This document shows, piece by piece, positions 36,932 through 55,617 of a stretch of DNA of 64,000 bases (the stretch's first letter is position 1; each line of letters starts with the position of its first letter). A model generated the notes under the pieces. It did no database searches and was not told the origin of the DNA. It worked only from the letters and a program-made list of their open reading frames with translations. The DNA lies in the NCBI RefSeq assembly GCF_054482525.1, contig NZ_CM137006.1; one strand, given 5' to 3'. The translations under genes and the position numbers were made by a program.

Positions 36932-37522
36932 TTACTGTTTCGGACGCAGATCCTCATCAAATACCAGACGCTGCCTGCCAGGTTCAACTTCCCGCAATGG
37001 CTCGACTTGATGCAACGTCTGCTTACAGCGTGTCACCAGCACCTGGTACTCATGCGTGCCCTGCTTTTTCCATGCCAACTCCTGCTCACTGAGTTCACGA
37101 ATCGCTTTCGCCGGGCTGCCGACAATCAGGTAATTAGCAGGCATTTCTGCTTTGGCTTTCACAAATGCGGATGCGCCAACAATGCTGTTCTCGCCAATCA
37201 CCGCACCGTCCATCACTACCGCGTTCATTCCCACTAATGCATTGCGGCGGATAATGCAGCCGTGAAGGATAGCGCTATGACCAATATGTCCATCTTCTTC
37301 CACGACAGTATCCTGCTCGGGAAAACCGTGCATAACGCAATTATCCTGAATGTTCGCGCCATCTTTCACCACGATACGACCAAAATCGCCACGCAGGCTG
37401 GCATTTGGCCCAACGTAAACACCCTTGCCGAGAATAACATCGCCGATCAATACCGCTGTCGGATGAACAAAACTCTCTTCTGGCACAACCGGAGTCAGAC
37501 CGTCTATCTGATAAATTGGCAT
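36932..37522 (-). CDS. paaY: PaaY, hexapeptide-repeat thioesterase of the phenylacetate pathway
   Basis: 196-aa [51 protein letters not shown]...; left-handed beta-helix repeats. Confidence 0.9.
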
Positions 37523-38454
37523 AACGCCTCCTGTTCAATATTCAAGCCGCCAAAACGTTGAAAATACAGGCTTCCCGGCGCAGGCAGTTCACCGACCGAG
37601 GTTTCACCTTTTTCACTAACGAACGCTAAAGCAGCAGGCGCTACGCGCTGATAAATGTTGATACACAGCTGACGCGCCGTATGCCCTGCCCAGTGAGCCG
37701 GAAGCAACTCCTCCGGCAACAATGGGTCTTTAAGGACGACACGGCGATAAAAATGGATCAGTAAAAGCTGAATATGAAATGCACGCTCCGGGGTTAACTC
37801 GTCTGCCGCCTCTTTTAACAGCGGCACCAGCGGGCGGAATGACTGAATAAAGGTTTCGTACATGGCATTTTGTTCAGTTAAATGCCAGCACTCTTCTACT
37901 CTGGCACGCAGTGCTGCACGAGAAAGCGCCAGTGGTATTTGCGCTTCAAAACAAATCACGTTATCCGCCACACCCGCTTCATGCAAAAGTGTCTGTACAT
38001 CGGCCAGTTTTTGCGACGGCGATGCCATCAGGCTGGGTGCCAGTGCGCCAAAACCTTGCCAGATCAACTGCTTTTTGACATCAGCCAGCGTTGATTTATC
38101 TAAACCTTCCGAGAGCAACAGGAGCCATTTACCATCCCATGCAGGTTGCTCTGCGCGATAAATTTTACTTTCTGCCCGTCGCGTCAGGCGCAAGCCTTTA
38201 TCACTGAGGCTATAGAAACTGCGTCGCCCGATGCGGGAAACATCCAGCCAGCCTTCTTTATTAAGACGAAACAAAGCGGTGCGCACGAAACGCTCACCAA
38301 ATCCCAGCCCTTCCAGCAAAGCAGCCAGACTACCCAGCCAGATTTCACCACCACGATGGGAAAGTGAATCACCATACAGAGAGGAGATCAAAGATGTGCC
38401 ACTGACAGGAACAGCGTTTACAGCATGTTGGATAAAAGTATCAAGTTTACTCAT
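37504..38454 (-). CDS. paaX: PaaX, repressor of the phenylacetate catabolon
   Basis: 316-aa [55 protein letters not shown]... Confidence 0.9.
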
Positions 38455-38554
38455 TCGATTCAGTCTGTTGTTATTGTTGTGATTTATGAATCATAGCACA
38501 GGTCGTATCGACTTCTGGCCCTGGCGGTTTACCTCACCAGGGCCAGGCGACACG

Positions 38555-39868
38555 TCAGGCACCAACAATATTGCGCAGATCAAACACCCGACACGCCTTG
38601 CCTTCTGAACGCGGGATACTGCCACAGTTAACGATCATCACATCGGTAGAGATCCCCACCATCGACTTAATCCGATGGCGTAGCTGGTGGCACACCTGGC
38701 AACGCTGCTCATGCGTCAATGTCAGGCTACTTTCTTTCAACTCCACTTTCACAGAAAGTGAATCAAGATGCCCCCGGCGGTTCACCTCCAGTTGGTAATG
38801 GGGCGATAAATGTTCGAATTTGACAATCTCTTCTTCCAGTTGTGACGGAAAGACATTTACACCGCGAATAATCAACATGTCATCGCTGCGTCCGCTGATG
38901 CGATCCATGCGGCGCATAGTCCGCGCCGTTCCTGGTAACAGTCGGGTTAAATCACGCGTGCGGTAACGAATGACCGGCAATGCTTCTTTGGTCAGAGTGG
39001 TGAATAACAGTTCGCCATGTTCACCATCGGCAAGCGGTGTGCCGTCATGAGGATTAACAATTTCAGGATAGAAATGATCTTCCCAAATGGTTGGGCCGTC
39101 AGTAGTTTCCAGACACTCCATCGCCACCCCCGGCCCCATCACTTCTGACAGGCCATAAATATCCAGTGCGGTGATCCCCAGGCGACGCTCAATCTCTTTA
39201 CGCATGGCCTGTGTCCACGGCTCAGCACCAAACACTCCAACTCGTAGCGAGCAACCGCTGGCATCACCGCCCAACTGACGCTCCAGCTCTTCAATCAGGT
39301 TAAGGCAATAAGATGGCGTAACCATGATCATATCTGGTTGAAAATCGCGGATCAGTTGCGCTTGTTTTTCTGTCTGCCCACCAGACATCGGGATCACCGT
39401 AGCGCCCAGACGTTCGGCCCCATAGTGCGCACCCAGCCCACCAGTAAACAGGCCGTAACCATAGGCGACATGAATTTTATCTTTGGGCGTGCCACCTGCC
39501 GCACGCAAGGAACGCGCTACAATATTGGCCCAGTTATCAATATCGTTTTGCGTATAGCCAACAACTGTCGGTTTACCTGTGGTTCCCGAAGAAGCATGAA
39601 TGCGCACCACTTGTTCCATCGGCACGGCAAAGGTGTCGAAAGGATAGTTGTCGCGCAGATCCTGTTTGGTGGTACAGGGAAATTTACGCAGGTCAGAAAG
39701 TTCCCTGAAATCATCAGGATGTACGCCTGCTGCGTCGAATTTGCGCCGATACATCGGGACATTTTCATACGCGTGTTTGAGCGTCCATTTCAGACGCTGT
39801 GTTTGCAACGCCTGTAACTCATCTACAGACGCGGTTTCAATCGGGTCAAGCTTTGTATTGGTTATCAT
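38555..39868 (-). CDS. paaK: Phenylacetate-CoA ligase
   Basis: 437-aa form from internal Met (MITNTKLDPIETASVDELQALQTQRLKWTLKHAYENVPMYRRKFD...). Confidence 0.9.
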   Translation of the reverse strand: MITNTKLDPIETASVDELQALQTQRLKWTLKHAYENVPMYRRKFDAAGVHPDDFRELSDLRKFPCTTKQDLRDNYPFDTFAVPMEQVVRIHASSGTTGKPTVVGYTQNDIDNWANIVARSLRAAGGTPKDKIHVAYGYGLFTGGLGAHYGAERLGATVIPMSGGQTEKQAQLIRDFQPDMIMVTPSYCLNLIEELERQLGGDASGCSLRVGVFGAEPWTQAMRKEIERRLGITALDIYGLSEVMGPGVAMECLETTDGPTIWEDHFYPEIVNPHDGTPLADGEHGELLFTTLTKEALPVIRYRTRDLTRLLPGTARTMRRMDRISGRSDDMLIIRGVNVFPSQLEEEIVKFEHLSPHYQLEVNRRGHLDSLSVKVELKESSLTLTHEQRCQVCHQLRHRIKSMVGISTDVMIVNCGSIPRSEGKACRVFDLRNIVGA

Positions 39869-39894
39869 TGTAGGGTACTCGCAGGTTGATATGC

Positions 39895-41100
39895 TCAAAC
39901 ACGCTCCAGAATCATGGCGATGCCCTGACCGACACCGATGCACATGGTGCATAATGCGTAACGACCGTTACGCCGATGCAGCTCATGGCTGGCAGCCAGT
40001 ACCAGGCGGGCACCACTCATTCCCAACGGATGGCCCAAGGCGATAGCGCCTCCGTTGGGGTTAACATATGGGGCATCATCAGGCAGCCCCAATTCGCGTA
40101 GTACACCCAATGCCTGGGCCGCGAACGCTTCGTTCAGTTCAATCACATCCATATCGTGAATACTCAGCCCTGCGCGTTCCAGCACCCGGCGAGTTGCAGG
40201 CACCGGACCAAGCCCCATCAGGCGCGGTTCCACCCCGGCGGTTGCCATGGCTACGATACGCGCCCGCGGTGTCAGTCCTTGCGCTGCTGCCATCTGTTCA
40301 CTGGCAATAATCAACGCAGCGGCTCCGTCATTCACCCCGGAAGCATTGCCTGCGGTAATCACCCCATTGGCACGAAATGGTGCTTTTAACCCACGTAACT
40401 GTTCCAGCGTCGTTTCCGGGCGCAGATGCTCATCATGTTGTATTTCTGTTACAACACCTTTCTTATTTTTCAAGACGACCGGAACAATCTCCTCAGCCAG
40501 AATGCCTGAGAATTGCGCTTTTGCCGTACGTTGCTGACTGCGTAGCGCAAAACTATCTTGATCTTCTCGTGATATTTTTAACAGTTCAGCTACATTCTCT
40601 GCCGTTTCCGGCATGCTGTCCGTTCCAAATTGCTGAGCCATGAGCGGGTTCACAAATCGCCAGCCAATAGTGGTATCGAACATCTCTGCCTGACGAGAAA
40701 ATGCACTGGCTGCCTTGCCCATAACAAACGGTGCCCGTGACATTGACTCCACGCCACCGGCGATTAGCAAATCGCCATCGCCCGCTTTAATCGCCCGTGC
40801 GGCATACCCCAGTGCGTCCAGCCCGGAACCACACAAGCGGTTAATCGTTGTGCCGGAAACACTCTGCGGCAGCCCCGCCAGTAAAGTCGCCATCCGGGCT
40901 ACGTTACGGTTATCTTCTCCCGCCTGATTAGCACAGCCGAGGATCACATCATCGATACATTCCGCATCGAGACGCGGGTTTCGCACCAGCAGCTCCCGCA
41001 AAGGGATAGCAGCCAGATCGTCAGCCCGAACACCTGATAATGCCCCGCCGTAGCGACCAATTGGCGTACGAATTCCGTCACAGATAAAGGCTTCACGCAT
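39895..41100 (-). CDS. paaJ: 3-oxoadipyl-CoA / 3-oxo-5,6-dehydrosuberyl-CoA thiolase
   Basis: 401-aa thiolase-family ORF; start overlaps the paaI stop (ATGA). Confidence 0.9.
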
Positions 41101-41522
41101 CAGGCTTCTCCTGTAATGGTGCCGCCGATGCGGTGAGATTTACCGCGAAACAGCGCAACCGTTTTTTGTTGTTGGTTAACAATTTCGATGTCGTAAACAC
41201 CGGTTTGCTTGCCCTGATGACGTACCTGCGCAGTAGCAGTTAAGGTGTCTCCGGCAAAGCCTGGACGCAAAAAATCAATCGTGCAGGCAGAAGCGACGGC
41301 TGCCAGCCCCTGGCTATTGCAGGCGTAGGCAAAGGCAGTATCAGCCAGTGAAAATAGCTGCCCGCCGTGGCAACTTTGATGACCATTAAGCATTTGTGCA
41401 GTGACGGTCATGGTCACTACAGCAAAGCCTTCATCCATTGAGATAATGTCGATGCCAAGCGCTTTGGCGCAGGCATCGTTCTCATACATTGCATGGGCAT
41501 TTTGCCAGGCCTTATGACTCAT
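41100..41522 (-). CDS. paaI: Hotdog-fold acyl-CoA thioesterase PaaI
   Basis: 140-aa form MSHKAWQNAHAMYENDACAKALGIDIISMDEGFAVVTMTV... Confidence 0.9.
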   Translation of the reverse strand: MSHKAWQNAHAMYENDACAKALGIDIISMDEGFAVVTMTVTAQMLNGHQSCHGGQLFSLADTAFAYACNSQGLAAVASACTIDFLRPGFAGDTLTATAQVRHQGKQTGVYDIEIVNQQQKTVALFRGKSHRIGGTITGEA

Positions 41523-42939
41523 AACCGCTCTCCAGAAGCGCTCGTTGGCGCAGCAATGAACATGGGCGATAGCGTTCTTCGCCATAGTGATGTTGTAGAT
41601 TTTCCAGGAGCCTTAATATTCGCTGCCAGCCAAGTTGCGCTCCCCAGGCAAGCGGGCCATATGGATAATTCACCCCAAGACGCATGGCGGTATCGATATC
41701 CTGTTCAGAGGCCACACCTTTTTGCAGCGCATCGAGGGCTTCATTGATGATCATTGCTACCGTTCGCCAAATCAGCATTCCTGGGTAATCTGCAATTTGC
41801 AGCACTGTTTTGCCCTGCTGTTGCAGGTAATAAATGGCTTTGCGGGTCGCTGAGTCCGGGTTCACCGCTGCAGCAGCAATGGTCACCACCTTGCCCGCCA
41901 TTTTGTCGATCACTACCACCGGGCGCGCCAGTCGTGTTGCCAACGCCTGTGCCGTCTCGCCTTGTGTCTCAATCAATAAAACATCGTCAATTTCCGTGAC
42001 GCCGTCACTTTTATTTTCTACTTTCATTGGGCTAAAACTGTCGCTTACCGCTTCCAGGCCAACAACTGCCTCACGTTCCGCGCGCCAGTCGTACACGCCA
42101 AGCCCACTTTTTTTGCCCAACCGTCCACCAATCACCAGTTCTTGTTGCACCAGCGAAGGTAAAAAACGACGCTCCTGCCAGAAAGCGTTAAACACCGAAC
42201 AGGTGACAGCAAAATTGACGTCCTGACCAATCAGATCGGTTAATTCCAGCGGCCCCATCGGGAAACCAGCACCATCGCGAAGCGCAGCGTCAATCACTTC
42301 TGGTGAAGCAACCTGCTCTTCCAGTGCCCGCCAGGCCTCGGAATAATAAGGACGCGCAACACGGTTAACGATAAATCCAGGTGTCGAATGACAGCGCACA
42401 GGCTGCTTACCCCAACTCAACGTCAGTTCACACAACTGCTCAACAACTTCCGCCGCCGTTGCCAGCCCACTGACCACCTCCACCAACTTCATGACAGGTG
42501 CCGGGTTAAAAAAATGCAGCCCCGCAACACGTTCAGGATTTTTTACCTCCGCAGCAATCGCGGTAATAGAGATTGACGATGTGTTAGTGGTCAATAGCGT
42601 TTGTGGCGGGCAAACTTCTGCCAGTTGTGCAAAGAGCGCTTTTTTAACTTCCAGACGTTCAGACGCCGCTTCAATGACCAGCTCCGCTGCTGCCAGCGCG
42701 TGAATATCGGTCACCGGGATCAGGCGTTTCAATGTGCGTTCACAGGTTTCAGCAGTCAGTTTTCCCCGCGTCACGCGTGAATTTAGCCGCGCGTGTATCC
42801 CGTCGATTGCGCGGGTCAGCGCTTCAGCAGAAATGTCATACAGTAAAACCTGATGTCCATGACTGGCGGCAACTTCAGCAATGCCAGCCCCCATGGTGCC
42901 GCTCCCAATCACTGCCACAGTTTGCACATTTATCATCAT
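41512..42939 (-). CDS. paaH: 3-hydroxyadipyl-CoA dehydrogenase
   Basis: 475-aa form MMINVQTVAVIGSGTMGAGIAEVAASHGHQVLLYDIS...; NAD-binding GxGxxG. Confidence 0.9.
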   Translation of the reverse strand: MMINVQTVAVIGSGTMGAGIAEVAASHGHQVLLYDISAEALTRAIDGIHARLNSRVTRGKLTAETCERTLKRLIPVTDIHALAAAELVIEAASERLEVKKALFAQLAEVCPPQTLLTTNTSSISITAIAAEVKNPERVAGLHFFNPAPVMKLVEVVSGLATAAEVVEQLCELTLSWGKQPVRCHSTPGFIVNRVARPYYSEAWRALEEQVASPEVIDAALRDGAGFPMGPLELTDLIGQDVNFAVTCSVFNAFWQERRFLPSLVQQELVIGGRLGKKSGLGVYDWRAEREAVVGLEAVSDSFSPMKVENKSDGVTEIDDVLLIETQGETAQALATRLARPVVVIDKMAGKVVTIAAAAVNPDSATRKAIYYLQQQGKTVLQIADYPGMLIWRTVAMIINEALDALQKGVASEQDIDTAMRLGVNYPYGPLAWGAQLGWQRILRLLENLQHHYGEERYRPCSLLRQRALLESGYES

Positions 42940-42940
42940 G

Positions 42941-43729
42941 CTATTTCCCCGTGAACTGCGGTGAGCGTTTAGCCAGGAACGCACTGACACCTTCACGATA
43001 ATCTGCGCTCCGTCCGGCAAGTCGCTGATAGTCACGTTCCAGATCCAGTTGCGTATCGAGCGTATTGGTTTCAGCGCTATTTATCGCTTGCTTGATAAGT
43101 CCAAGACCAAATGTCGGTTGTGTCGCCAGATGCCGTGCTAGCTGTTGCGCGGTATCTGCCAGCGTTTCATCATCAACAACCTGCCAGATCATCCCCCATT
43201 CGTGCGCCTGTTCAGCACTCAGTTGATTCCCCAGCAGTGCCAGCCCTAGGGCGCGCGCTCGTCCGGCAACGCGTGGCAGTAACCAGGTACCACCGCAGTC
43301 GGGTACTAAACCTAATTTACTAAACGCCATGACGAATTTTGCTGAACGGGCAGCAATAACGATGTCGCATCCCAGTGCCAGTGTTGCGCCAGCTCCTGCC
43401 GCCACGCCATTGACTGCACAGATCACCGGTTTTGGCAGTTTTGCAAGGCGACGTACCAGTGGGTTATAGAAACGCTCCACTGACATACCTAAATCCGGTG
43501 CGGGGCCTGTGGGATCAACATTACGATCGTTAAGATCCTGACCAGCACAAAATCCGCGCCCGGCACCTGTAATTAACAGGCAACGGATAGTGTCGTCGCG
43601 CTCGGCCTGTTTCAGGCTCTCTGCGAGTTGTGCGTGCATCTCATCATTAAAACTGTTCAGGCGTTCCGGGCGGTTGAGCGTTAGTGTCATCACGCCCTTT
43701 TCTACATGACTGAGGATGAATTCCATCAT
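42941..43729 (-). CDS. paaG: Crotonase-family isomerase (1,2-epoxyphenylacetyl-CoA isomerase)
   Basis: 262-aa enoyl-CoA hydratase/isomerase-fold ORF. Confidence 0.9.
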   Translation of the reverse strand: MMEFILSHVEKGVMTLTLNRPERLNSFNDEMHAQLAESLKQAERDDTIRCLLITGAGRGFCAGQDLNDRNVDPTGPAPDLGMSVERFYNPLVRRLAKLPKPVICAVNGVAAGAGATLALGCDIVIAARSAKFVMAFSKLGLVPDCGGTWLLPRVAGRARALGLALLGNQLSAEQAHEWGMIWQVVDDETLADTAQQLARHLATQPTFGLGLIKQAINSAETNTLDTQLDLERDYQRLAGRSADYREGVSAFLAKRSPQFTGK

Positions 43730-44496
43730 TAGCGTCCTTTAAAGTCGGGCGTGCGTTTTTGTAAGAAAGCGGAGATGCCTTCATGACGATCTTCTGTTGC
43801 CGCCAGCAAGGTGAATAACTGTCGCTCCTGGGCAAGTCCGGCTTGCAAAGCCACTTCCTGCGACTGGCGCAGCGCTTGCTTTGCCGCTTGTAAGGCCAGC
43901 GGCGAGTGACGTGCCATTTTCGACGCCAGCTGTAAGGCGTATTCGAGGGTTAAATCGCTGGGGAAGACGTCGCTAACCAGCCCGGCCTGCAGTGCTTGCT
44001 GGGCGGTGATGCTTTCTCCGCTCAGCACCATTTTGCTGGCTAACGATTTACCGACACTACGGATTAAACGTTGCGTTCCGCCTGCGCCCGGCATGATGCC
44101 GAGAGTGATTTCCGGCAACCCAAAACGCGCGCTCTCTCCGGCAACCACCACATCGCACAACAATGCCAGTTCGCAACCCGCACCAAGCGCGTAACCATTG
44201 ACGGCTGCGATGAGTGGTTTGTTAAAGGCCTGCAATCGCGCCCATAGCTGGGGACGTGTATCGTTTAAGGTGGCCGCAAGATCTTTTTCCGCCATTTCGT
44301 TGAGATCGGCCCCGGCGGCAAAAAAGCGTGCATTACCGGTAATCACACAGACCGAAATACTGCTATCGGTAGCCGCAGCTTCCAGTTCATTTACCAGTTG
44401 CGTCAGCAGAGCATTATTCAGTGCATTACGTGCGGCGGGACGGTTAAGGGTCAGTAACAATACTTGTTGCTGACGGCTGACGATCAGTTCGCTCAT
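43729..44496 (-). CDS. paaF: Enoyl-CoA hydratase (2,3-dehydroadipyl-CoA hydratase)
   Basis: 255-aa crotonase-fold ORF. Confidence 0.9.
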   Translation of the reverse strand: MSELIVSRQQQVLLLTLNRPAARNALNNALLTQLVNELEAAATDSSISVCVITGNARFFAAGADLNEMAEKDLAATLNDTRPQLWARLQAFNKPLIAAVNGYALGAGCELALLCDVVVAGESARFGLPEITLGIMPGAGGTQRLIRSVGKSLASKMVLSGESITAQQALQAGLVSDVFPSDLTLEYALQLASKMARHSPLALQAAKQALRQSQEVALQAGLAQERQLFTLLAATEDRHEGISAFLQKRTPDFKGR

Positions 44497-45563
44497 GCCA
44501 TCCCCTTCGCGTCAAAGTCAACCACCACATCGCTGGTCAGCGGCAGTGCCTGGCAACTCAACACATAGCCTGCGGCCAGTTCATCCGGTTCCAGACTGTA
44601 ATTGGTTTCCATCGCCACTTTGCCACGCAGCACTTTGCATTTGCAGGTCGCACAGACGCCGCCTTTGCAGGCATAGGGCAGATCAGCCCCCTGGCGCAAT
44701 GCCGCATCGAGAATGCTTTCATCGTCGGCATTAAGCACGATTTCCCGATCCCGCCCATCCTGACGTACAGTCACTTTTTGTCCGTCACTTTGCACGTTAA
44801 CGCTACGTTTGACGCGCGTGCCAGGCGTATTAAACCGCTCCAGATGAATCGCTTTTTCTGGCATTCCCAGTGCTTTTAAGGCGGTTTCCGCGTCATCCAT
44901 CATCGCCGCCGGACCACAAATAAACGCCTCATCATAAAGACGAAAATTAATGAGCGAGGCCCCAAGTGACTGTAATTTTTCACCGTCAATACGCCCGTGA
45001 AGCAGATCGCTGTCGAGAGTTTCCTGACTGAAAATGCACAACAACTGTAAACGCTGAGGATATTTGTCTTTCAGGTCTGCCAGTGCCTGGCGAAACATCA
45101 TGCTCTGGCTGGTACGGTTACCGTAGATCAGGGTGAACTGACTTTCAGACTCGGTTTGTAAAGTGGTGGCGATAATCGCCAGCATTGGCGTAATACCTGA
45201 TCCTGCTGCAATTGCCAGATAGCGGCCCTGACGTTCGGCCTGCGGCTGATAGCCGAAATGCCCCTGCGGCACCATGACCTCCAGCGTCATACCCTGGCGG
45301 ATGTGTTCGCGGGCATAGCGGGAGAAATGTCCGCCTTCAATGGCTTTCACCGCCACACTAATTTCGCCAGGCAGGTAGCTGCGGCAAATGGAGTAACAAC
45401 GGCGTAATTCTTCACCATTAAGGCTGGCTTTTAAGGTCAAATGTTGACCGGGGCGAAAGCGATACGCCTCCTGCAAAGGCTGGGGCACCGCAAAGGTAAT
45501 GGTCACCGCATCACGGGTTTCCGGCTCCACTTTTGCCACCGTTAAGGAATGAAACGTTGTCAT
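44493..45563 (-). CDS. paaE: Reductase subunit of the ring 1,2-phenylacetyl-CoA epoxidase (ferredoxin-NADP reductase-like with 2Fe-2S domain)
   Basis: 356-aa form from internal Met (MTTFHSLTVAKVEPETRDAVTITFAVPQPL...); C-terminal CxxxxCxxC...C plant-type ferredoxin motif; track ORF extends 70 codons upstream. Confidence 0.9.
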   Translation of the reverse strand: MTTFHSLTVAKVEPETRDAVTITFAVPQPLQEAYRFRPGQHLTLKASLNGEELRRCYSICRSYLPGEISVAVKAIEGGHFSRYAREHIRQGMTLEVMVPQGHFGYQPQAERQGRYLAIAAGSGITPMLAIIATTLQTESESQFTLIYGNRTSQSMMFRQALADLKDKYPQRLQLLCIFSQETLDSDLLHGRIDGEKLQSLGASLINFRLYDEAFICGPAAMMDDAETALKALGMPEKAIHLERFNTPGTRVKRSVNVQSDGQKVTVRQDGRDREIVLNADDESILDAALRQGADLPYACKGGVCATCKCKVLRGKVAMETNYSLEPDELAAGYVLSCQALPLTSDVVVDFDAKGMA

Positions 45564-45570: not shown

Positions 45571-46068
45571 TCAAATACATTTGAAATAATCGAAAGGTTC
45601 GCGACAGCTATCGCAGCGATACAATGCTTTGCAGGCCGTGGAACCAAATTCACTGATAAGTGTGGTATGGACGCTGGCGCAACGCGGGCAACGTACTTCT
45701 GGCGGCAAATGGGCATGACAACTGTGCCCGGCGGGCGGGCTAATGCCATACTGTCGCAGACGCTCACGGGCATCGGGGGTCATCCAGTCGGTGGTCCATG
45801 CCGGGTCGAGTTGCAGCACAACCTGAACGGGGGTAAACCCGTTGGTTGTCATTGCCTCACGTATCGCGCCAATCAAATGTTCCGTTGCCGGACAACCGGA
45901 ATATGTCGGCGTAAAGCCGATCACCCATCCTTCTCCCATCTGTGTCACATTACGCACCATGCCTAAATCGGTAATGGTCAGCACCGGGATCTCCGGGTCC
46001 GGGATCTGGCTGAGTAGCGCCCATATCTCATGCACCTGTGGAGGTGCAATGGTGGCCAGACGTTGCAT
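45571..46068 (-). CDS. paaD: PaaD, epoxidase assembly/maturation subunit
   Basis: 165-aa form MQRLATIAPPQVHEIWALLSQIPDPEIPVLTITDLGMVRNV... Confidence 0.85.
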   Translation of the reverse strand: MQRLATIAPPQVHEIWALLSQIPDPEIPVLTITDLGMVRNVTQMGEGWVIGFTPTYSGCPATEHLIGAIREAMTTNGFTPVQVVLQLDPAWTTDWMTPDARERLRQYGISPPAGHSCHAHLPPEVRCPRCASVHTTLISEFGSTACKALYRCDSCREPFDYFKCI

Positions 46069-46082: not shown

Positions 46083-46829
46083 TTACCATTGCTGACCGGG
46101 CAAGACACGCTGGAGATACTGCATTTCTGCCAGCATGGGTCCAAGGTGTTCGGTATGCAGTCCTTTTTTACCGCCAGTGCGATACGCCTGCTCTTGCGGT
46201 ACGTTCAATGTGGCTTCGTTGATCCCGGCAAAAACTTCGGCTTCCCACGCTGCACGTAAAGTGCGTGGATCAACCGCAATACCCTCTTCACTCAGTGCAA
46301 TATCAATCTCGTCGGCATCGAACAGTTCGGCGGTAAAACGCCACAACTTGTCGATGGCCTGCTGCATCTTTTGCCCTGATACGTCAGTCCCATTGCCCAG
46401 TCGCTCCAGCCAACCACGACTAAAACGCAGGTGATAACGCGCTTCTTTGATTGCTTTGGCAGAAATCGCCGCCAGTTGCGGATCACGGCTTTCCATCAGA
46501 CGGGTAAAGAGCGCCACATGCCATGCATCGATGAAATACTGACGTGCAATGGTGTCGGCAAAATTGCCGTTTGGTTGTTCAACCAACAATAAGTTGCTGA
46601 ACTGGCGCTCGTCTCGGGTGAAGGTCAGGGTATCTTCATCGCCTTCTCCCGCTAATTCAGCGGCATACGATAAGAAGTTGCGTGCCTGACCTAATAAATC
46701 GAGGCCAATGTTTGCCAGTGCGAGATCGATTTCCAGTTCCGGTGCGTGACCGCACCATTCACCCAACCGCTGGGAGAGCACCAGGCAGTTATCGCCCAGG
46801 CGCAAGGTGTAAGCCGTTAACTGATTCAT
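46083..46829 (-). CDS. paaC: PaaC, structural subunit of the ring 1,2-phenylacetyl-CoA epoxidase
   Basis: 248-aa form MNQLTAYTLRLGDNCLVLSQRLGEWCGHAPELEIDLALANIGLD... Confidence 0.9.
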   Translation of the reverse strand: MNQLTAYTLRLGDNCLVLSQRLGEWCGHAPELEIDLALANIGLDLLGQARNFLSYAAELAGEGDEDTLTFTRDERQFSNLLLVEQPNGNFADTIARQYFIDAWHVALFTRLMESRDPQLAAISAKAIKEARYHLRFSRGWLERLGNGTDVSGQKMQQAIDKLWRFTAELFDADEIDIALSEEGIAVDPRTLRAAWEAEVFAGINEATLNVPQEQAYRTGGKKGLHTEHLGPMLAEMQYLQRVLPGQQW

Positions 46830-46837: not shown

Positions 46838-47125
46838 TCACATGTGCTCAATGCCATCAGGGATGGTGTAAAACGTTGGATGGCGATAGACCTTGCTTTC
46901 AGCCGGATCAAAAAATTCACCGCGTTCTTCCGGTTGCGAGGCAACAATTTCACTCGCCTTCACCACCCAAATTGAACATCCTTCGCTACGACGGGTATAA
47001 GCATCACGGGCATTTTCCAGTGCCATCCGCTCATCGGCAGCATGTAAACTGCCAACATGGCGGTGTGATAATCCCTGTTTGCCACGCACGAAAACTTCGT
47101 ATAACGGCCAGTAAACATTACTCAT
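46838..47125 (-). CDS. paaB: PaaB, small subunit of the epoxidase
   Basis: 95-aa ORF MSNVYWPLYEVFVRGKQGLSHRHVGSLHAADERMALENARDAYTRRSEG... Confidence 0.9.
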   Translation of the reverse strand: MSNVYWPLYEVFVRGKQGLSHRHVGSLHAADERMALENARDAYTRRSEGCSIWVVKASEIVASQPEERGEFFDPAESKVYRHPTFYTIPDGIEHM

Positions 47126-47136
47126 TTTGAAACTCC

Positions 47137-48066: not shown

Positions 48067-48351
48067 GTCATCACCTTTACGATTCCAGTTTTCGTGATTT
48101 AATTAAAAACACGAATCACGTTGTTTTATGAAAGTTACACAATGGTTAACTAAAATCACAAATTTTGTATGTTTGAACTGTGACGGATTTCGCACCCTAT
48201 TTTTATAAATCATTATTTATCAGTGCATTAATGTTTTTCGCAGTTGCTATACAGATTGCATAGTTAACATTTCGTTAAAAGACCACTTGCTTTTTTATGA
48301 TTCGCGGTTTAACTATTAGCAACAGAAATGTGAAACATCTGGAGAGTAGCG
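48067..48351. promoter_or_regulatory. Divergent paaA / paaZ promoter region
   Basis: 285-bp AT-rich spacer between divergent paaA and paaZ; contains the inverted repeats listed next and a CRP-like half-site (tgtgacggatttcgca, 48179-48194). Confidence 0.6.
48080..48120. promoter_or_regulatory. Candidate PaaX operator
   Basis: cGATTC at 48080-48085 and GAATCA at 48113-48118 separated by 27 bp (remembered PaaX motif TGATTC-N26-28-GAATCA); nested inverted repeat CGTGATT (48093-48099) / AATCACG (48114-48120). Confidence 0.45.
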
Positions 48352-50397
48352 ATGCAGCAGTTAGCCAGTTTCTTATCCGGTACCTGGCAGTCTGGCCGGG
48401 GCCGTAGCCGTTTGATTCACCACGCTATTAGCGGCGAGGCGTTATGGGAAGTGACCAGTGAAGGTCTTGATATGGCGGCTGCCCGCCAGTTTGCCATTGA
48501 AAAAGGTGCCCCCGCCCTCCGCGCGATGACCTTTATCGAACGTGCGGCGATGCTTAAAGCGGTCGCTAAACATCTGCTGAGTGAAAAAGAGCGTTTCTAT
48601 GCTCTTTCTGCACAAACAGGCGCAACGCGGGCAGACAGTTGGGTTGATATTGAAGGTGGCATTGGGACGTTATTTACATACGCCAGCCTCGGTAGCCGGG
48701 AGCTGCCTGACGATACGCTGTGGCCGGAAGATGAATTGATCCCCTTATCGAAAGAAGGTGGATTTGCCGCGCGCCATGTACTGACCTCAAAGTCAGGCGT
48801 GGCAGTGCATATTAACGCCTTTAACTTCCCCTGCTGGGGAATGCTGGAAAAGCTGGCACCAACGTGGCTGGGCGGAATGCCAGCCATCATCAAACCAGCT
48901 ACCGCGACGGCCCAACTGACTCAGGCGATGGTGAAATCAATTGTCGATAGTGGTCTTGTTCCCGAAGGCGCAATTAGTCTGATCTGCGGTAGTGCGGGCG
49001 ACCTTTTGGATCATCTGGACAGCCAAGATGTGGTGACTTTCACGGGGTCCGCGACGACCGGACAGATGCTGCGAGTTCAGCCAAATATCGTTGCCAAATC
49101 TATCCCCTTCACCATGGAAGCTGATTCCCTGAACTGCTGCGTACTGGGCGAAGATGTCACCCCGGATCAACCGGAGTTTGCGCTGTTTATTCGTGAAGTT
49201 GTGCGTGAGATGACCACAAAAGCTGGGCAAAAATGTACGGCAATCCGGCGGATTATTGTGCCGCAGGCATTGGTTAATGCTGTCAGTGATGCTCTGGTTG
49301 CGCGATTACAGAAAGTCGTGGTCGGTGATCCTGCGCAGGAAGGCGTGAAAATGGGCGCACTGGTAAATGCTGAGCAGCGTGCCGATGTGCAGGAAAAAGT
49401 GAACACATTGCTGGCTGCAGGATGCGAGATTCGCCTCGGTGGTCAGGCGGATTTATCTGCTGCGGGTGCCTTCTTCCCGCCAACCTTATTGTACTGTCCG
49501 CAGCCGGATGAAACACCGGCGGTACATGCAACAGAAGCCTTTGGCCCTGTCGCAACACTGATGCCTGCACAAAACCAGCAACATGCTCTGCAACTGGCTT
49601 GTGCAGGCGGCGGTAGCCTTGCGGGAACGCTGGTGACGGCTGATCCGCAAATTGCGCGTCAGTTTATTGCCGACGCGGCACGTACGCATGGGCGAATTCA
49701 GATCCTCAATGAAGAATCGGCAAAAGAATCCACCGGGCATGGCTCCCCACTGCCACAACTGGTACATGGTGGGCCTGGTCGCGCAGGAGGCGGTGAAGAA
49801 TTAGGTGGTTTACGGGCGGTGAAACATTACATGCAGCGAACCGCTGTTCAGGGTAGTCCGACGATGCTTGCCGCTATCAGTAAACAGTGGGTGCGTGGTG
49901 CGAAAGTCGAAGAAGATCGTATTCATCCGTTCCGCAAATATTTTGAGGAGCTGCAACCAGGCGACAGCCTGTTGACTCCCCGCCGCACAATGACAGAGGC
50001 CGATATTGTGAACTTTGCTTGCCTCAGCGGCGATCATTTCTATGCACATATGGATAAGATTGCTGCTGCCGAATCTATTTTTGGTGAGCGTGTAGTACAT
50101 GGGTATTTTGTGCTTTCTGCGGCTGCGGGTCTGTTTGTCGATGCCGGAGTTGGTCCGGTCATTGCTAACTACGGGCTGGAAAACTTGCGTTTTATCGAAC
50201 CCGTAAAACCAGGCGATACCATCCAGGTGCGTCTCACCTGTAAGCGCAAGACGCTGAAAAAACAGCGTAGCGCAGAAGAAAAACCAACAGGTGTAGTGGA
50301 ATGGGCGGTAGAGGTATTCAATCAGCATCAAACCCCGGTGGCGCTGTATTCAATTCTGACGCTGGTGGCCAGGCAGCACGGTGATTTTGTCGATTAA
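48352..50397 (+). CDS. paaZ: Bifunctional oxepin-CoA hydrolase / 3-oxo-5,6-dehydrosuberyl-CoA semialdehyde dehydrogenase
   Basis: 681-aa ORF; N-terminal aldehyde dehydrogenase domain plus C-terminal MaoC-like hotdog domain. Confidence 0.95.
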
Positions 50398-50407
50398 TCG
50401 GTGAATG

Positions 50408-50438
50408 AAGGGCAACGGCGAATAGTTGCCCTTTTATT
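50408..50438 (+). terminator. Rho-independent terminator of paaZ
   Basis: gggcaacggcgaatagttgccc followed by ttttattt. Confidence 0.65.
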
Positions 50439-50644: not shown

Positions 50645-52918
50645 ATGGGAAGCCCCTCTCTGTATTCTGCCCGTAAAACAGCCGTGGCGTTGGCAGTCGC
50701 CTTAAGTTTCGCCTGGCAAGCGCCGGTATTTGCCCACGGTGGCGAAGCGCATATGGTGCCAATGGATGAAACGCTTAAAGAATTTGGTGCCGATGTGCAG
50801 TGGGACGACTACGCCCAGATCTTTACCCTGATTAAAGATGGCGCGTACGTGAAAGTGAAACCGGGTGCGCAAACAGCAATTGTTAATGGTCAGCCTCTGG
50901 CACTGCAAGTACCGGTAGTGATGAAAGACAATAAAGCCTGGGTTTCTGACACCTTTATTAACGATGTTTTCCAGTCCGGGCTGGATCAAACCTTTCAGGT
51001 AGAAAAGCGCCCTCACCCACTTAATGCGCTAACTGCGGACGAAATTAAACAGGCCGTTGAAATTGTTAAAGCTTCCGCGGACTTCAAACCCAATACCCGT
51101 TTTACTGAGATTTCCCTGCTACCGCCAGATAAAGAAGCTGTCTGGGCGTTTGCGCTGGAAAACAAACCGGTTGACCAGCCACGCAAAGCCGACGTCATTA
51201 TGCTCGACGGCAAACATATCATCGAAGCGGTGGTGGATCTGCAAAACAACAAACTGCTCTCCTGGCAACCCATTAAAGACGCCCACGGTATGGTGTTGCT
51301 GGATGATTTCGCCAGTGTGCAGAACATTATTAACAACAGTGAAGAATTTGCCGCTGCCGTGAAGAAGCGCGGTATTACTGATGCGAAGAAAGTGATTACC
51401 ACGCCGCTGACCGTAGGTTATTTCGATGGTAAAGATGGCCTGAAACAAAATGCCCGGTTGCTCAAAGTCATCAGCTATCTTGATGTCGGTGATGGCAACT
51501 ACTGGGCACATCCCATCGAAAACCTGGTGGCGGTCGTTGACTTAGAACAGAAAAAAATCGTTAAGATTGAAGAAGGTCCGGTAGTTCCGGTGCCAATGAC
51601 CGCACGCCCATTTGATGGCCGTGACCGCGTTGCTCCGGCAGTTAAACCTATGCAAATCATCGAGCCTGAAGGTAAAAATTACACCATTACTGGCGATATG
51701 ATTCACTGGCGTAACTGGGATTTTCACCTCAGCATGAACTCTCGCGTCGGGCCGATGATCTCCACCGTGACTTATAACGACAATGGCACCAAACGCAAAG
51801 TCATGTACGAAGGTTCTCTCGGCGGCATGATTGTGCCTTACGGTGATCCTGATATTGGCTGGTACTTTAAAGCGTATCTGGACTCTGGTGACTACGGTAT
51901 GGGCACGCTAACCTCACCAATTGCTCGTGGTAAAGATGCACCGTCTAACGCAGTGCTCCTTAATGAAACCATCGCCGACTACACTGGCGTGCCGATTGAG
52001 ATCCCTCGCGCTATCGCGGTATTTGAACGTTATGCCGGGCCGGAGTATAAGCATCAGGAAATGGGCCAGCCCAACGTCAGTACCGAACGCCGGGAGTTAG
52101 TGGTGCGCTGGATCAGTACAGTGGGTAACTATGACTACATTTTTGACTGGATCTTCCATGAAAACGGCACTATTGGCATTGATGCCGGTGCTACGGGCAT
52201 CGAAGCGGTGAAAGGTGTTAAAGCGAAAACCATGCACGATGAGACGGCGAAAGATGACACGCGCTACGGCACGCTTATCGATCACAATATCGTGGGTACT
52301 ACACACCAGCATATTTATAATTTCCGCCTCGATCTGGATGTAGATGGCGAGAATAACAGCCTGGTGGCGATGGACCCAGTGGTAAAACCGAATACTGCCG
52401 GTGGCCCACGCACCAGTACCATGCAAGTTAATCAGTACAACATCGGCAATGAACAGGATGCCGCGCAGAAGTTTGATCCGGGCACGATTCGTCTGTTGAG
52501 TAACCTGAACAAAGAGAATCGCATGGGCAATCCGGTTTCCTATCAAATTATTCCTTATGCAGGTGGTACTCACCCGGTAGCAAAAGGTGCCCAGTTCGCG
52601 CCGGACGAGTGGATCTATCATCGTTTAAGCTTTATGGACAAGCAGCTCTGGGTAACGCGTTATCATCCTGGCGAGCGTTTCCCGGAAGGCAAATATCCAA
52701 ACCGTTCTACTCATGACACCGGTCTTGGACAATACAGTAAAGATAACGAGTCGCTGGACAACACCGACGCCGTTGTCTGGATGACCACCGGCACCACACA
52801 TGTGGCCCGTGCCGAAGAGTGGCCGATTATGCCGACCGAATGGGTACATACCCTGCTGAAACCATGGAACTTCTTTGACGAAACGCCAACGCTTGGGGCG
52901 ATAAAGAAAGATAAGTGA
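50645..52918 (+). CDS. tynA: Periplasmic copper/topaquinone primary-amine oxidase
   Basis: 757-aa form from ATG 50645 with signal peptide MGSPSLYSARKTAVALAVALSFAWQAPVFA; track ORF starts 12 codons upstream. Confidence 0.95.
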   Translation: MGSPSLYSARKTAVALAVALSFAWQAPVFAHGGEAHMVPMDETLKEFGADVQWDDYAQIFTLIKDGAYVKVKPGAQTAIVNGQPLALQVPVVMKDNKAWVSDTFINDVFQSGLDQTFQVEKRPHPLNALTADEIKQAVEIVKASADFKPNTRFTEISLLPPDKEAVWAFALENKPVDQPRKADVIMLDGKHIIEAVVDLQNNKLLSWQPIKDAHGMVLLDDFASVQNIINNSEEFAAAVKKRGITDAKKVITTPLTVGYFDGKDGLKQNARLLKVISYLDVGDGNYWAHPIENLVAVVDLEQKKIVKIEEGPVVPVPMTARPFDGRDRVAPAVKPMQIIEPEGKNYTITGDMIHWRNWDFHLSMNSRVGPMISTVTYNDNGTKRKVMYEGSLGGMIVPYGDPDIGWYFKAYLDSGDYGMGTLTSPIARGKDAPSNAVLLNETIADYTGVPIEIPRAIAVFERYAGPEYKHQEMGQPNVSTERRELVVRWISTVGNYDYIFDWIFHENGTIGIDAGATGIEAVKGVKAKTMHDETAKDDTRYGTLIDHNIVGTTHQHIYNFRLDLDVDGENNSLVAMDPVVKPNTAGGPRTSTMQVNQYNIGNEQDAAQKFDPGTIRLLSNLNKENRMGNPVSYQIIPYAGGTHPVAKGAQFAPDEWIYHRLSFMDKQLWVTRYHPGERFPEGKYPNRSTHDTGLGQYSKDNESLDNTDAVVWMTTGTTHVARAEEWPIMPTEWVHTLLKPWNFFDETPTLGAIKKDK

Positions 52919-52930
52919 TTGTTTCAGACT

Positions 52931-52959
52931 AAAAAAACGGCACCAGGTGCCGTTTTTTA
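52931..52959. terminator. Bidirectional rho-independent terminator between convergent tynA and feaB
   Basis: aaaaaaacggcaccaggtgccgtttttt: perfect stem cggcacc / ggtgccg with A-run and T-run on either side. Confidence 0.75.
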
Positions 52960-52976
52960 CTTATGAGCGAACCAGA

Positions 52977-54476
52977 TTAATACCGTACACACACCGACTT
53001 AGTTTCACACCAACCGTCCAGCCAATCCGGGCCAAAATCACGGCCTGTTCCTGACTGCTTCATCCCACCAAACGGTAAGTTAGCGTCAATTAAGGTATGG
53101 CTGTTTACCCACACCGTACCTGCCTGTAAGCGATCGCTATATTCCAGAGCCTGGGAGAGATTTTGCGTCCAGACGCTGGCAGTTAAGCCATATTCCGTGT
53201 CGTTTGCCAGTTGTAACGCCTCTTCTCCATCCGCTACTCGCACCAGGTTAACCACCGGACCAAACACCTCTTCACGAGTTAAGCGCAATTTAGCATCGGG
53301 ATTAACCACCAGCGTTGGCGCAACATAATATCCCTCTCCGGCAGGTCCACTCGACCCGCGAATCAGTTCTGCTTGCTGTGCCTGCGCATCGTCGAGGAAT
53401 GAACGCACTTTGTCGCAATGCGCACGAGAAACCAAAGGGTTAATCTGTGCAACAAGTGACATCCCCGGTCCCACTTGCAACGATTTTACCGCCTGCTCAA
53501 ATCCACTAACCAGCGTGTCAAACAACGGCGCTTCAATATAAATTCGCGAACTGGCGGCGCATACTTGCCCCTGATTCAGGAAACTTCCGGTCATCAAACC
53601 TTCAATAACCCATTGCGGATCAGCATCTTTTAATACAATTGCCGGGTTTTTACCGCCCAGCTCCAGCGTTACACGCGTTAAGCGATCAGCCGCAGTTCTG
53701 GCAATACCTTTGCCCGTCGCGGTTGAACCGGTAAAACTAATTTTCGCGACATGAGGATGTGACGTCAGGGCCGCGCCGCATACAGCACCTGACCCGGTGA
53801 CCACATTAAAAACGCCATCAGGGATACCAGCCTCGCTGGCCAGTTCCGCCACGCGCAACATCGTCAGTGGCGTGGTTTCCGAAGGCTTAATCACGATTGA
53901 ACAGCCTGCTGCCAGTGCTGGCATCACCTTCCACATACCAATCATCAACGGAAAGTTCCATGGCACAATTCCCGCCACTACGCCAACCGGCTCTTTACGC
54001 GTCCAGGCCTGATAACGCGCCCCCTGGGGTAAGGGAATCGACAAGTCCAGCGTTTTACCCGCGATTTTGGTCGTTAACCCGGCGGTATAACGCATCCAGT
54101 TCAGCGTACAGCCCACTTCAAAAGCACGGGAAATGGCAATTGACTTGCCTTGCTCCAGGGTTTCCAGTTGCGCCAGCTCCTCACTGTGCTGCTCCACCAG
54201 ATCAGCAAAACGTAGCAGAATACGTTCACGCTCTGCGGGTAATCGCCCGGCCCAGCGACGCGAGACAAAGGCCCGCCAGGCAGACATGACTGCGTTATCT
54301 ACATCCGCTTCGTTGGCATCAGCAGTAGACGCAATTTCTTGCCCGGTGGCCGGATCAAAGATCGCCAACCGTTTTTCACTTTGTGCGGGGCCAGGACGAC
54401 CATCAATATAAAGACCGTGTTGACGATCGAGAAACTGTTGGACCTGGCTTAATACTGCTACATGCGGCTCTGTCAT
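52977..54476 (-). CDS. feaB: Phenylacetaldehyde dehydrogenase
   Basis: 499-aa form [37 protein letters not shown]...; aldehyde dehydrogenase family; track ORF starts one Met earlier. Confidence 0.95.
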
Positions 54477-54545
54477 CACTTTTCCTTATCATTTACCCAG
54501 TGTGATTTCAGTGTACGCAGCGACAAGAAAAGTCACTTTTTTCGC

Positions 54546-54592
54546 TGTGACATTCGCTTTGTCAGCTGTGACAAGCTCCGCAAATCGTGACA
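54546..54592. promoter_or_regulatory. Three phased direct repeats (C/T)GTGACA upstream of feaB; candidate FeaR activator site
   Basis: gcTGTGACA at 54546-54552, gcTGTGACA at 54567-54573, tCGTGACA at 54586-54592; spacing 21 and 19 bp; 67-113 bp upstream of the feaB start in the divergent feaB/feaR spacer. Confidence 0.45.
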
Positions 54593-54711
54593 ATAACCGC
54601 TTATGTCTCTATGCCTGACAAGACTTATTTCCTATAGTCAGGCTCATTAGCTTCGATTATCGCAACACAAATGCAACAATAAAAATACATTTCACAGAGC
54701 GAAAACGTGCC

Positions 54712-55617
54712 ATGAACCCCGCAGTGGATAATGAGTTTCAGCAATGGCTTTCCCAAATCAATCAGGTATGCGGAAATTTTACCGGGCGCCTGCTGACTGA
54801 GCGTTACACGGGTGTACTGGATACGCATTTTGCCAAAGGACTAAAGCTGAGTACCGTGACAACCAACGGGGTGAATTTATCCCGCACCTGGCAGGAAGTA
54901 AAAGGCAGCGACGATGCCTGGTTTTACACCGTTTTTCAGCTTAGTGGTCAGGCAATAATGGAGCAGGATGAGCGTCAGGTGCAGATTGGCGCTGGCGATA
55001 TTACGTTACTCGATGCCTCACGCCCCTGTTCGCTTTACTGGCAGGAGTCTTCTAAACAGATTTCATTACTTTTACCACGCACTCTGCTGGAACAATATTT
55101 TCCCCATCAAAAACCTGTCTGCGCAGAAAGACTGGACGCTGACTTACCTATGGTGCAACTCAGTCATCGCCTGTTGCAGGAGAGCATGAATAACCCGGCA
55201 CTTTCTGAAACAGAAAGTGAAGCTGCGCTACAGGCGATGGTGTGTCTGCTTCGCCCGGTACTTCATCAGCGGGAATCTGTTCAACCTCGGCGTGAACGTC
55301 AGTTTCAAAAAGTGGTTACGTTGATAGACGATAATATTCGCGAAGAGATATTACGCCCGGAGTGGATAGCCGGAGAGACAGGTATGTCAGTACGTAGTTT
55401 GTACCGAATGTTTGCCGATAAAGGTTTGGTGGTCGCGCAATATATTCGTAACCGTCGTCTCGATTTTTGTGCTGATGCGATTCGCCATGCCGCAGATGAT
55501 GAAAAACTGGCAGGCATTGGCTTTCATTGGGGATTTTCCGACCAGAGTCATTTTTCAACGGTATTTAAGCAACGCTTTGGGATGACGCCAGGCGAGTATC
55601 GCCGTAAATTCCGCTAA
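54712..55617 (+). CDS. feaR: AraC-family activator of tynA/feaB
   Basis: 301-aa ORF with C-terminal AraC-type HTH (...GFSDQSHFSTVFKQRFGMTPGEYRRKFR). Confidence 0.9.
   Translation: MNPAVDNEFQQWLSQINQVCGNFTGRLLTERYTGVLDTHFAKGLKLSTVTTNGVNLSRTWQEVKGSDDAWFYTVFQLSGQAIMEQDERQVQIGAGDITLLDASRPCSLYWQESSKQISLLLPRTLLEQYFPHQKPVCAERLDADLPMVQLSHRLLQESMNNPALSETESEAALQAMVCLLRPVLHQRESVQPRRERQFQKVVTLIDDNIREEILRPEWIAGETGMSVRSLYRMFADKGLVVAQYIRNRRLDFCADAIRHAADDEKLAGIGFHWGFSDQSHFSTVFKQRFGMTPGEYRRKFR

Follow-up and report, generated by a model that had tools for sequence, protein, structure and literature searches.

The segment at positions 36932-55617 of the window, the 64,000-nucleotide stretch of DNA that we analyzed, is in our firm judgment the native Escherichia coli feaR-feaB-tynA-paaZ-paaABCDEFGHIJK-paaXY locus, intact and, as far as its sequence indicates, probably functional. 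It spans 18,686 bp from paaY at the start to feaR at the end and holds 17 genes, namely 14 paa genes together with tynA, feaB and feaR (Table 1). Published work already covers the locus, the enzymes and regulators that it encodes and its uneven occurrence across E. coli: 'feaRB-tynA-paaZABCDEFGHIJKXY' has been named as a seventeen gene locus (PMC4951805), which bears out an earlier note on this DNA that called the block well known, and the patchy distribution has been described (Goldstone 2016).

Results

The seventeen genes are intact and closely match those of K-12

The segment is 100% identical to the corresponding region of the E. coli chromosomes SCU-102, 19KM1776 and PCN033, and the RefSeq annotation of a 100%-identical segment gives the same 17 genes. 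Since the identity to annotated E. coli chromosomes is 98-100%, chance resemblance is not at issue. The minus-strand genes paaY, paaX and paaK-J-I-H-G-F-E-D-C-B-A come first, followed by paaZ, tynA, feaB and feaR. Annotation and open reading frames both agree exactly with the content, order, strands and outer coordinates given in the earlier note, and its placing of tynA-feaB-feaR directly beside the 14 paa genes is borne out by the 247 bp that separate paaZ from tynA. Coding sequence makes up 94.7% of the block, and its GC content is 52.0% against 50.1% for the whole window, with no sharp step.

All 17 open reading frames run uninterrupted to the lengths that they have in K-12 and use ordinary start and stop codons. 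We looked in them for frameshifts, stops and length changes relative to K-12, lesions of a kind that the earlier note would take as refuting function of the paa genes, and found none. The equivalog cut-offs of the NCBIfam HMMs are exceeded by 16 of the 17 proteins, including all 14 Paa products. The remaining one, FeaB, passes no NCBIfam equivalog model (its top-scoring HMM, StyD phenylacetaldehyde dehydrogenase, gives 611 bits against a model cut-off of 850) and was identified by its 99.2% identity to K-12 FeaB over the full length. TynA carries a signal peptide (...APVFA/HGGEAH) and the NYD motif of the topaquinone precursor, with Tyr496, and feaR is divergent from feaB. Longer alternative reading frames for paaK (465 aa), paaH (507 aa), paaE (426 aa) and tynA (769 aa) were rejected; the K-12/RefSeq starts are preferred on the strength of their Shine-Dalgarno sites and end-to-end matches to the family models. 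An Rfam scan of positions 35000-57500, at E-values up to 1, found no known RNA family in or beside the block.

The K-12 MG1655 locus (b1384-b1400) has the same 17 genes, in the same order and relative orientation, with the same lengths and junction geometry. Coding nucleotide identity is 98.3%, and the intergenic regions are collinear and 95-99% identical. The locus differs from that of K-12 by 57 amino-acid substitutions, none of which makes a stop, and by two 1-bp indels, which lie in different spacers. PaaX, PaaI and PaaB are identical to their K-12 counterparts, PaaK differs by one residue and PaaY by four, and the limits and length of paaA agree. The pN/pS ratio, 0.077 for the genes together and never above 0.21 in a single one, points to strong purifying selection in every gene. 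Homology to K-12 stops on the left at 36931/36932: past paaY, K-12 has ynbG and an IS-disrupted ydbA pseudogene, whereas here pdxI follows 230 bp on.

Table 1. Genes, regulatory features and deletion endpoints of the locus, in window positions. Bit scores are for the NCBIfam model named, with its cut-off.
Feature	Position	Strand	Description
Terminator-like hairpin at paaY stop	36913..36933	-	From scan; weak fold, -10.5 kcal/mol, z -2.0
paaY	36932..37522	-	196 aa; hexapeptide-repeat thioesterase; TIGR02287, 376.9 bits (cut-off 319.6)
paaX	37504..38454	-	316 aa; GntR-type repressor; TIGR02277, 410.9 bits (cut-off 264.6)
Px promoter region (paaK-paaX spacer)	38455..38554	-	95/100 identity to K-12
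paaK	38555..39868	-	437 aa; phenylacetate-CoA ligase; TIGR02155, 789.9 bits (cut-off 646.3)
paaJ	39895..41100	-	TIGR02430, 741.2 bits (cut-off 597)
paaI	41100..41522	-	140 aa; hotdog-fold thioesterase; TIGR02286, 176.9 bits (cut-off 118.9)
paaH	41512..42939	-	475 aa; 3-hydroxyadipyl-CoA dehydrogenase; TIGR02279, 854.1 bits (cut-off 669.4)
paaG	42941..43729	-	TIGR02280, 477.3 bits (cut-off 345.2)
paaF	43729..44496	-	NF007239, 482 bits (cut-off 371)
paaE	44493..45563	-	356 aa; phenylacetyl-CoA epoxidase reductase subunit; TIGR02160, 588.5 bits (cut-off 420.8)
paaD	45571..46068	-	165 aa; epoxidase accessory protein; TIGR02159, 241.1 bits (cut-off 108.2)
paaC	46083..46829	-	248 aa; epoxidase structural subunit; TIGR02158, 368.9 bits (cut-off 133.4)
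paaB	46838..47125	-	95 aa; epoxidase subunit; TIGR02157, 167 bits (cut-off 85.5)
paaA	47137..48066	-	309 aa, GTG start; epoxidase catalytic oxygenase subunit; TIGR02156, 517.3 bits (cut-off 280)
Divergent Pa/Pz promoter region	48067..48351	.	274/285 identity to K-12; predicted PaaX boxes
Predicted PaaX site	48080-48118		CGATTC-N27-GAATCA; pattern match with 1 mismatch
Predicted 15-bp PaaX box	48108-48122	-	One of the two best window matches to the 15-bp box
Predicted 15-bp PaaX box	48294-48308	+	One of the two best window matches to the 15-bp box
paaZ	48352..50397	+	681 aa; oxepin-CoA hydrolase/aldehyde dehydrogenase fusion; TIGR02278, 1211.7 bits (cut-off 562.8)
Terminator-like hairpin past paaZ	50407..50434	+	U-rich tail; from consensus scan; -25 kcal/mol, z -5.8
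tynA	50645..52918	+	757 aa precursor; periplasmic copper/topaquinone primary-amine oxidase; NF011285, 1627 bits (cut-off 1278)
Two-way terminator, convergent tynA/feaB	52932..52958	.	A7-stem-loop-T6; read from sequence
feaB	52977..54476	-	499 aa; NAD-dependent phenylacetaldehyde dehydrogenase
Divergent feaB/feaR promoter region	54477..54711	.	232/235 identity to K-12
feaR	54712..55617	+	301 aa; AraC-family activator; NF007243, 506.2 bits (cut-off 199)
Scar A	37655 to 55407		Deletion junction
ST131 scar	37272 to 55366		Deletion junction
IS3-linked deletion	50966		Sequence kept only from here rightwards

The locus would encode the route from 2-phenylethylamine onwards

The enzyme steps, the pathway and its regulation have been described (PMC9493321); they are established for K-12 and carried over to this locus from its near-identity. 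Led by its signal peptide, TynA would be exported to the periplasm and there oxidize 2-phenylethylamine, yielding phenylacetaldehyde with release of ammonia and hydrogen peroxide. The aldehyde would then be oxidized to phenylacetate by FeaB, with FeaR switching on tynA and feaB, as described for this activator (PMC4640556). PaaK would form phenylacetyl-CoA, the ligand that releases the PaaX repressor (PMC9493321), and so relieve repression at Pa, Pz and Px. The ring would next be epoxidized by PaaABC(D)E, the product isomerized by PaaG to oxepin-CoA, and the ring opened and the resulting aldehyde oxidized by PaaZ, and the thioesterases PaaI and PaaY would rescue CoA from dead-end products. The view that one segment carries the whole route to central metabolites is accurate for enzymes and regulators, on the basis of annotation, K-12 identity, HMMs and literature.

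The phenylacetyl-CoA catabolon of Pseudomonas putida and other paa clusters use the same enzyme families and a PaaX-type regulator (PMC9493321). The logic is shared as well, from CoA ligation through epoxidation of the ring, formation of the oxepin and hydrolytic ring opening to beta-oxidation-like steps. The Pseudomonas paa cluster also has uptake genes. These have no counterpart in this E. coli block, and neither annotation nor an NCBIfam HMM search of the 17 genes assigned any of them to a transporter family.

The two modules are separate regulons

The amine and paa modules are separate regulons, under FeaR and PaaX respectively, and are expressed from several transcription units rather than one operon. 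We propose at least six such units: paaXY, paaA-K, paaZ, tynA, feaB and feaR. Matches to the PaaX box with at most one mismatch are confined, across the window, to the Pa/Pz spacer. The window contains no exact match to TGATTC-N(20-35)-GAATCA, the natural Pa site being CGATTC-N27-GAATCA, as in K-12; a PaaX site has been published (PMC9493321). Short PaaX patterns with mismatches allowed were not enriched over shuffled sequences, and the boxes are therefore identified by position and K-12 collinearity, not by statistics. Each 15-bp box differs from K-12 at one flanking base, the flanks here reading CACG at Pa and GCGGT at Pz, and six other E. coli variants lacked the Pz-side change. We rejected a reading of these flank changes as a sign of regulatory loss as unsupported, given that the core hexamers are unchanged in seven E. 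coli variants and the flanks are polymorphic among strains.

In the paaK-paaX spacer, which precedes the Px operon described in PMC9493321, a GC-rich hairpin lies just past the paaK stop (38515-38546) and lacks a T-tract; an 86-nt fold in the same spacer reaches -40.6 kcal/mol (z -6.0). The consensus scan for terminators overlooked the clear two-way terminator between tynA and feaB, which folding confirmed on both strands (-18.6 and -16.4 kcal/mol). A sigma-70 consensus scan was uninformative, with 9 matches against 18.2 in shuffled sequences, fewer than expected by chance.

Overlapping junctions are compatible with translational coupling

Among the 12 same-strand junctions, three overlap by 1-4 nt, two overlap by more (paaH/paaI by 11 nt and paaX/paaY by 19 nt) and seven have gaps of 1-100 nt, a single one of which is just 1 nt. 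The short overlaps are those of paaE/paaF (4 nt, an ATGA motif within GGCATGAGC, 44496-44493), paaF/paaG (1 nt) and paaI/paaJ (1 nt, TGATG, reading CCTGATGCG). The earlier note had named these three junctions, and each does overlap by 1-4 nt; its statement that many paa genes do so is too broad for three of 12, and the ATGA that it placed at paaJ/paaI sits at paaE/paaF.

Coupling of translation at the paa overlaps is plausible from this geometry, and the tight packing of paaA-K with stop/start overlaps would probably favor balanced expression. Alternatively, the overlaps may reflect mere genome compaction, with ribosomes loading separately onto each gene at its ribosome-binding site. At all five overlaps the downstream gene indeed has a recognizable Shine-Dalgarno site of its own 5-12 nt upstream (paaF AAGGGGA, paaG AAAGGA, paaJ CAGGAGA, paaI TGGAGAG, paaY CAGGAGG), although such a site and coupling can coexist; an obvious Shine-Dalgarno is missing at paaK and paaX, likewise in K-12. 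Our literature search found no published experimental test of coupling in paa. However, overlaps of 1 and 4 nt are the classic geometry of termination-reinitiation, and K-12 has the same junction geometry although about 1.7% of the nucleotides differ. We regard compaction without true coupling as a genuine possibility, if short of an even chance, and retain coupling as a plausible reading.

The block is repeatedly missing from E. coli genomes

We surveyed 5,426 complete E. coli genomes, counting the block as present when at least 80% of it was carried. It was found in 3,096 of them (57%), leaving about 43% of genomes without an intact block. The right boundary, ydbL-ynbE-ydbH, is nearly constant (5,415/5,426). 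The allele of this window is rare: three genomes match at 100% and one at 99.2%, and the others listed reach at most 98.8%. At least three separate deletion routes have removed block sequence, represented by scar A, the ST131 scar and an IS3-linked deletion (Table 1). Absence is clean in O157:H7 and in B2 strains such as Nissle 1917, and in O157:H7 and Nissle ydbL abuts ydbA; together with ST131, these strains show the same chromosomal site with the block lost or never there. A classical, horizontally acquired mobile island was rejected, there being no annotated mobility genes and no composition step; the block is more aptly called a variable region prone to deletion.

The same survey bears on why the two modules lie side by side. 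Their adjacency could be a historical accident of a variable region rather than a selected super-cluster, as might be suggested by their different regulators and separate transcription units, by the wide variation in paa gene content, order and operon structure across bacteria (PMC2653477) and by the about 137 additional genomes that carry tynA-feaB-feaR (3,233) compared with paa (3,096). Yet at least 80% of paa alone was also found in 3,096 genomes, the same count as for the whole block, so that paa seemingly never occurs without the amine module. In addition, both modules went missing at once in two independent deletions, whose ends lie in paaX or paaY and in feaR. The modules are also linked metabolically and transcriptionally through phenylacetate: feaB and paa are no longer induced on phenylethylamine when tynA is knocked out (PMC4640556). 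We therefore consider an accident of location unlikely.

It is very improbable that the block, though whole in structure, is silent or impaired here, through missense changes or altered PaaX/FeaR control, and heading for loss: the frequent absence and independent deletions elsewhere, the rarity of this allele, the one-base differences flanking the two PaaX box cores and the 57 substitutions, any of which could in principle impair an enzyme, are set against reading frames free of lesions, purifying selection in every gene and unchanged operator cores whose flanks already vary among strains.

Discussion

The intact and probably functional locus described here offers verified context, in the form of coordinates, junctions, promoters, terminators and PaaX boxes, for regulatory findings elsewhere in the window. 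Its repeated loss might mean that some host-associated lineages have been under selection to shed the pathway, with presence or absence acting as an adaptive switch rather than through neutral decay; we hold this to be a speculative reading and doubt it. If it were true, the costs could include the hydrogen peroxide made by TynA and reactive epoxide or aldehyde intermediates. Altogether, the block is an accessory trait of E. coli that is lost as a unit, a point that matters for typing strains and for modeling the metabolism of individual lineages.

An intact block nearly identical to that of K-12

The earlier note placed 14 paa genes with tynA, feaB and feaR in one 18.7-kb segment, 36932-55617, where a mechanical ORF list gives a closely packed series of long reading frames. 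In a megablast comparison with 5,426 complete E. coli genomes, 4,193 had some match to the 18,686-bp block, and three chromosomes (SCU-102, 19KM1776 and PCN033) carried it at 100% identity. The RefSeq genes of the identical SCU-102 segment show these limits to be exact, as are the gene count and the length.

Features of the block in window coordinates. Genes are those that RefSeq annotates in SCU-102, whose segment is identical, moved to window numbering. Junctions were read straight from the sequence and are listed in transcription order (+, gap; -, overlap). For spacers, positions identical to K-12 are given.
Feature	Coordinates	Strand	Detail
paaA	47137-48066	-	A/B +11 nt
paaB	46838-47125	-	B/C +8 nt
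paaC	46083-46829	-	C/D +14 nt
paaD	45571-46068	-	D/E +7 nt
paaE	44493-45563	-	E/F -4 nt, ATGA
paaF	43729-44496	-	F/G -1 nt, TAATG
paaG	42941-43729	-	G/H +1 nt
paaH	41512-42939	-	H/I -11 nt
paaI	41100-41522	-	I/J -1 nt, TGATG
paaJ	39895-41100	-	J/K +26 nt
paaK	38555-39868	-	K/X +100 nt
paaX	37504-38454	-	X/Y -19 nt
paaY	36932-37522	-	
paaZ	48352-50397	+	
tynA	50645-52918	+	
feaB	52977-54476	-	
feaR	54712-55617	+	
paaK-paaX spacer			95/100
paaA-paaZ spacer	48067-48351		274/285
paaZ-tynA spacer			239/247
tynA-feaB spacer			57/58
feaB-feaR spacer			232/235
CGATTC-N27-GAATCA	48080-48118		Pa/Pz spacer
15-bp PaaX boxes	48108-48122; 48294-48308		two best window matches
Hairpin after paaY	36913-36933		U-rich tail
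Hairpin after paaZ	50407-50434		U-rich tail
Two-way terminator	52932-52958		between convergent tynA and feaB
Hairpin after paaK	38515-38546	-	no T-tract
Scar	37655/55407		paaX joined to feaR
ST131 scar	37272/55366		paaY joined to feaR
IS3-linked deletion	50966		kept only rightwards, from inside (truncated) tynA

We compared each gene with the E. coli K-12 MG1655 locus. All 17 have the K-12 length, a single terminal stop and no internal stop, and start with ATG except paaA (GTG, as in K-12). Differences amount to 298 of 17,730 coding bases (98.3% identity) and 57 amino acids across the 17 proteins, with PaaX, PaaI and PaaB identical. By Nei-Gojobori count, pN/pS against K-12 is 0.077 overall and at most 0.21 for any gene, so all 17 have been under purifying selection since the split from the K-12 lineage.

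Sixteen proteins (PaaY, X, K, J, I, H, G, F, E, D, C, B, A, Z, TynA and FeaR) score above the curated threshold for the matching NCBIfam equivalog model, that of PaaJ being a pcaF-type thiolase. FeaB passed no NCBIfam equivalog model (best, Pseudomonas StyD phenylacetaldehyde dehydrogenase, 611 bits; cut-off 850); we assign it as phenylacetaldehyde dehydrogenase because it shares 99.2% identity with the K-12 enzyme, which has been characterised. In TynA the signal peptide (...APVFA/HGGEAH...) is retained, as is the Asn-Tyr-Asp motif with the tyrosine, at precursor position 496, that is converted to topaquinone; these residue roles are established for the E. coli amine oxidase.

The proposed route

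The pathway steps were shown in K-12, and near-identity extends them to the window. Periplasmic TynA would convert phenylethylamine to phenylacetaldehyde and FeaB would convert this to phenylacetate, from which PaaK would make phenylacetyl-CoA, the inducer. The ring would be epoxidised, isomerised and opened by PaaABC(D)E, PaaG and PaaZ, and PaaJ, G, F and H, then PaaJ again, would yield acetyl-CoA and succinyl-CoA, with PaaI and PaaY acting as rescue thioesterases (PMC9493321). FeaR activates tynA and feaB, and neither feaB nor any paa gene is induced any longer in a tynA knockout grown with phenylethylamine (PMC4640556), so the functional link between the amine and paa modules is experimental. 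The claim that one segment encodes the whole route holds for enzymes and regulators, all of which are present, but no block gene was assigned to a transporter family by RefSeq annotation or NCBIfam.

Gene overlaps and possible translational coupling

The overlaps of 1-4 nt from which coupling had been proposed exist at paaE/paaF, paaF/paaG and paaJ/paaI, but "many" is too strong for three of 12 junctions (five with the longer overlaps), and the ATGA placed at paaJ/paaI belongs to paaE/paaF. Junction geometry is identical in K-12. Overlaps of 1 and 4 nt are an established geometry for coupling, which by analogy may reasonably be inferred here. At every overlap, a Shine-Dalgarno sequence for the downstream gene also lies within the gene before it, and initiation independent of upstream translation is a live alternative; our literature search found no paper testing coupling in the paa operon. 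Nearly all other block genes have a Shine-Dalgarno sequence, but none can be recognised in the 25 nt before the start of paaK (39869-39894) or paaX (38455-38480); K-12 shares the paaJ-paaK spacer base for base.

Promoters and terminators

Every intergenic region aligns collinearly with its K-12 counterpart. PaaX represses the promoters Pa (paaA-K), Pz (paaZ) and Px (paaXY) until phenylacetyl-CoA lifts repression, and its site is given as TGATTC(N27)GAATCA (2022 review; PMC9493321). This exact pattern is absent from the whole window; the Pa/Pz spacer holds a one-letter variant in a stretch shared with K-12. For the 15-bp PaaX box attributed to the Galán and Kim papers, each of the two best matches differs from its K-12 counterpart by one flanking base. 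When seven E. coli variants are aligned, no change is seen in the core hexamers and only the flanks vary, so nothing suggests a loss of PaaX control. Across E. coli, the paaA-paaZ spacer varies more than coding sequence does (identity 92.5-100%, with 438 genomes at 90-95%); the window's exact version is common to three genomes only, and the GCGGT flank of its Pz box is absent from the six other variants.

No Rfam family matched within 35000-57500. The perfect 10-bp GC-rich hairpin directly after the paaK stop (86-nt context, -40.6 kcal/mol, z -6.0) has its stem conserved in K-12, where the loop shows two base differences. The hairpin might stabilise the 3' end of the mRNA or act as a partial terminator before Px.

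Distribution and flanks

The block is accessory in E. coli: 3,096 of the 5,426 genomes carry 80% or more of it. At the same threshold, paaK-paaZ alone is likewise found in 3,096 genomes and tynA-feaB-feaR in 3,233. The right-flank core genes ydbL-ynbE-ydbH occur in 5,415 genomes, so the site itself is fixed. Other E. coli carry at least three different deletion junctions; in two scars, what is left of paaX or paaY is fused to the final ~210-250 bp of feaR, and at one junction the flanking sequences in the window have AATGTT in common. No scar marks the absence of the block in O157:H7 and Nissle 1917, where ydbL adjoins the ydbA autotransporter gene. With a GC content of 52.0% (window, 50.1%) and no mobility genes, the block is not a classical genomic island. 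Its patchy distribution is already published: Goldstone et al. (2016) described the "seventeen gene locus feaRB-tynA-paaZABCDEFGHIJKXY", located between ydbH/ynbE/ydbL and ynbC/ynbD/azoR, as genomically heterogeneous and containing internal deletions (PMC4951805).

Homology to K-12 ends exactly at the paaY stop codon (spacer 36702-36931, paaY-pdxI). Beyond paaY, K-12 has ynbG and ydbA, an 8.6-kb autotransporter pseudogene disrupted by an IS, and genes resembling ydbA are present in ST131, O157:H7 and Nissle, whereas in the window pdxI follows after 230 bp and ydbA is therefore absent. On the right, most E. coli match ydbL-ynbE-ydbH (55700-57200) at 96-99% identity, but O157:H7-type genomes at only ~87% (375 genomes at 80-90%), which suggests a divergent or recombinant haplotype beside the site without the block. 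Just left of the block, ydbD is covered by a low-GC stretch at 32500-35500 (41.6-46%); GC is ~50-54% in the block and elsewhere in the region profiled. Four block matches lie on records labelled plasmids; one, NZ_CP159530.1 (298,830 bp), has tynA-feaB at its extreme end and could be either a piece of chromosome assigned wrongly or a large chromid-like element.

Altogether, the analysis confirms the observation, with a single minor correction, and supports its interpretation. The block is already known in every respect testable here, and serves as checked context for other findings in the window.
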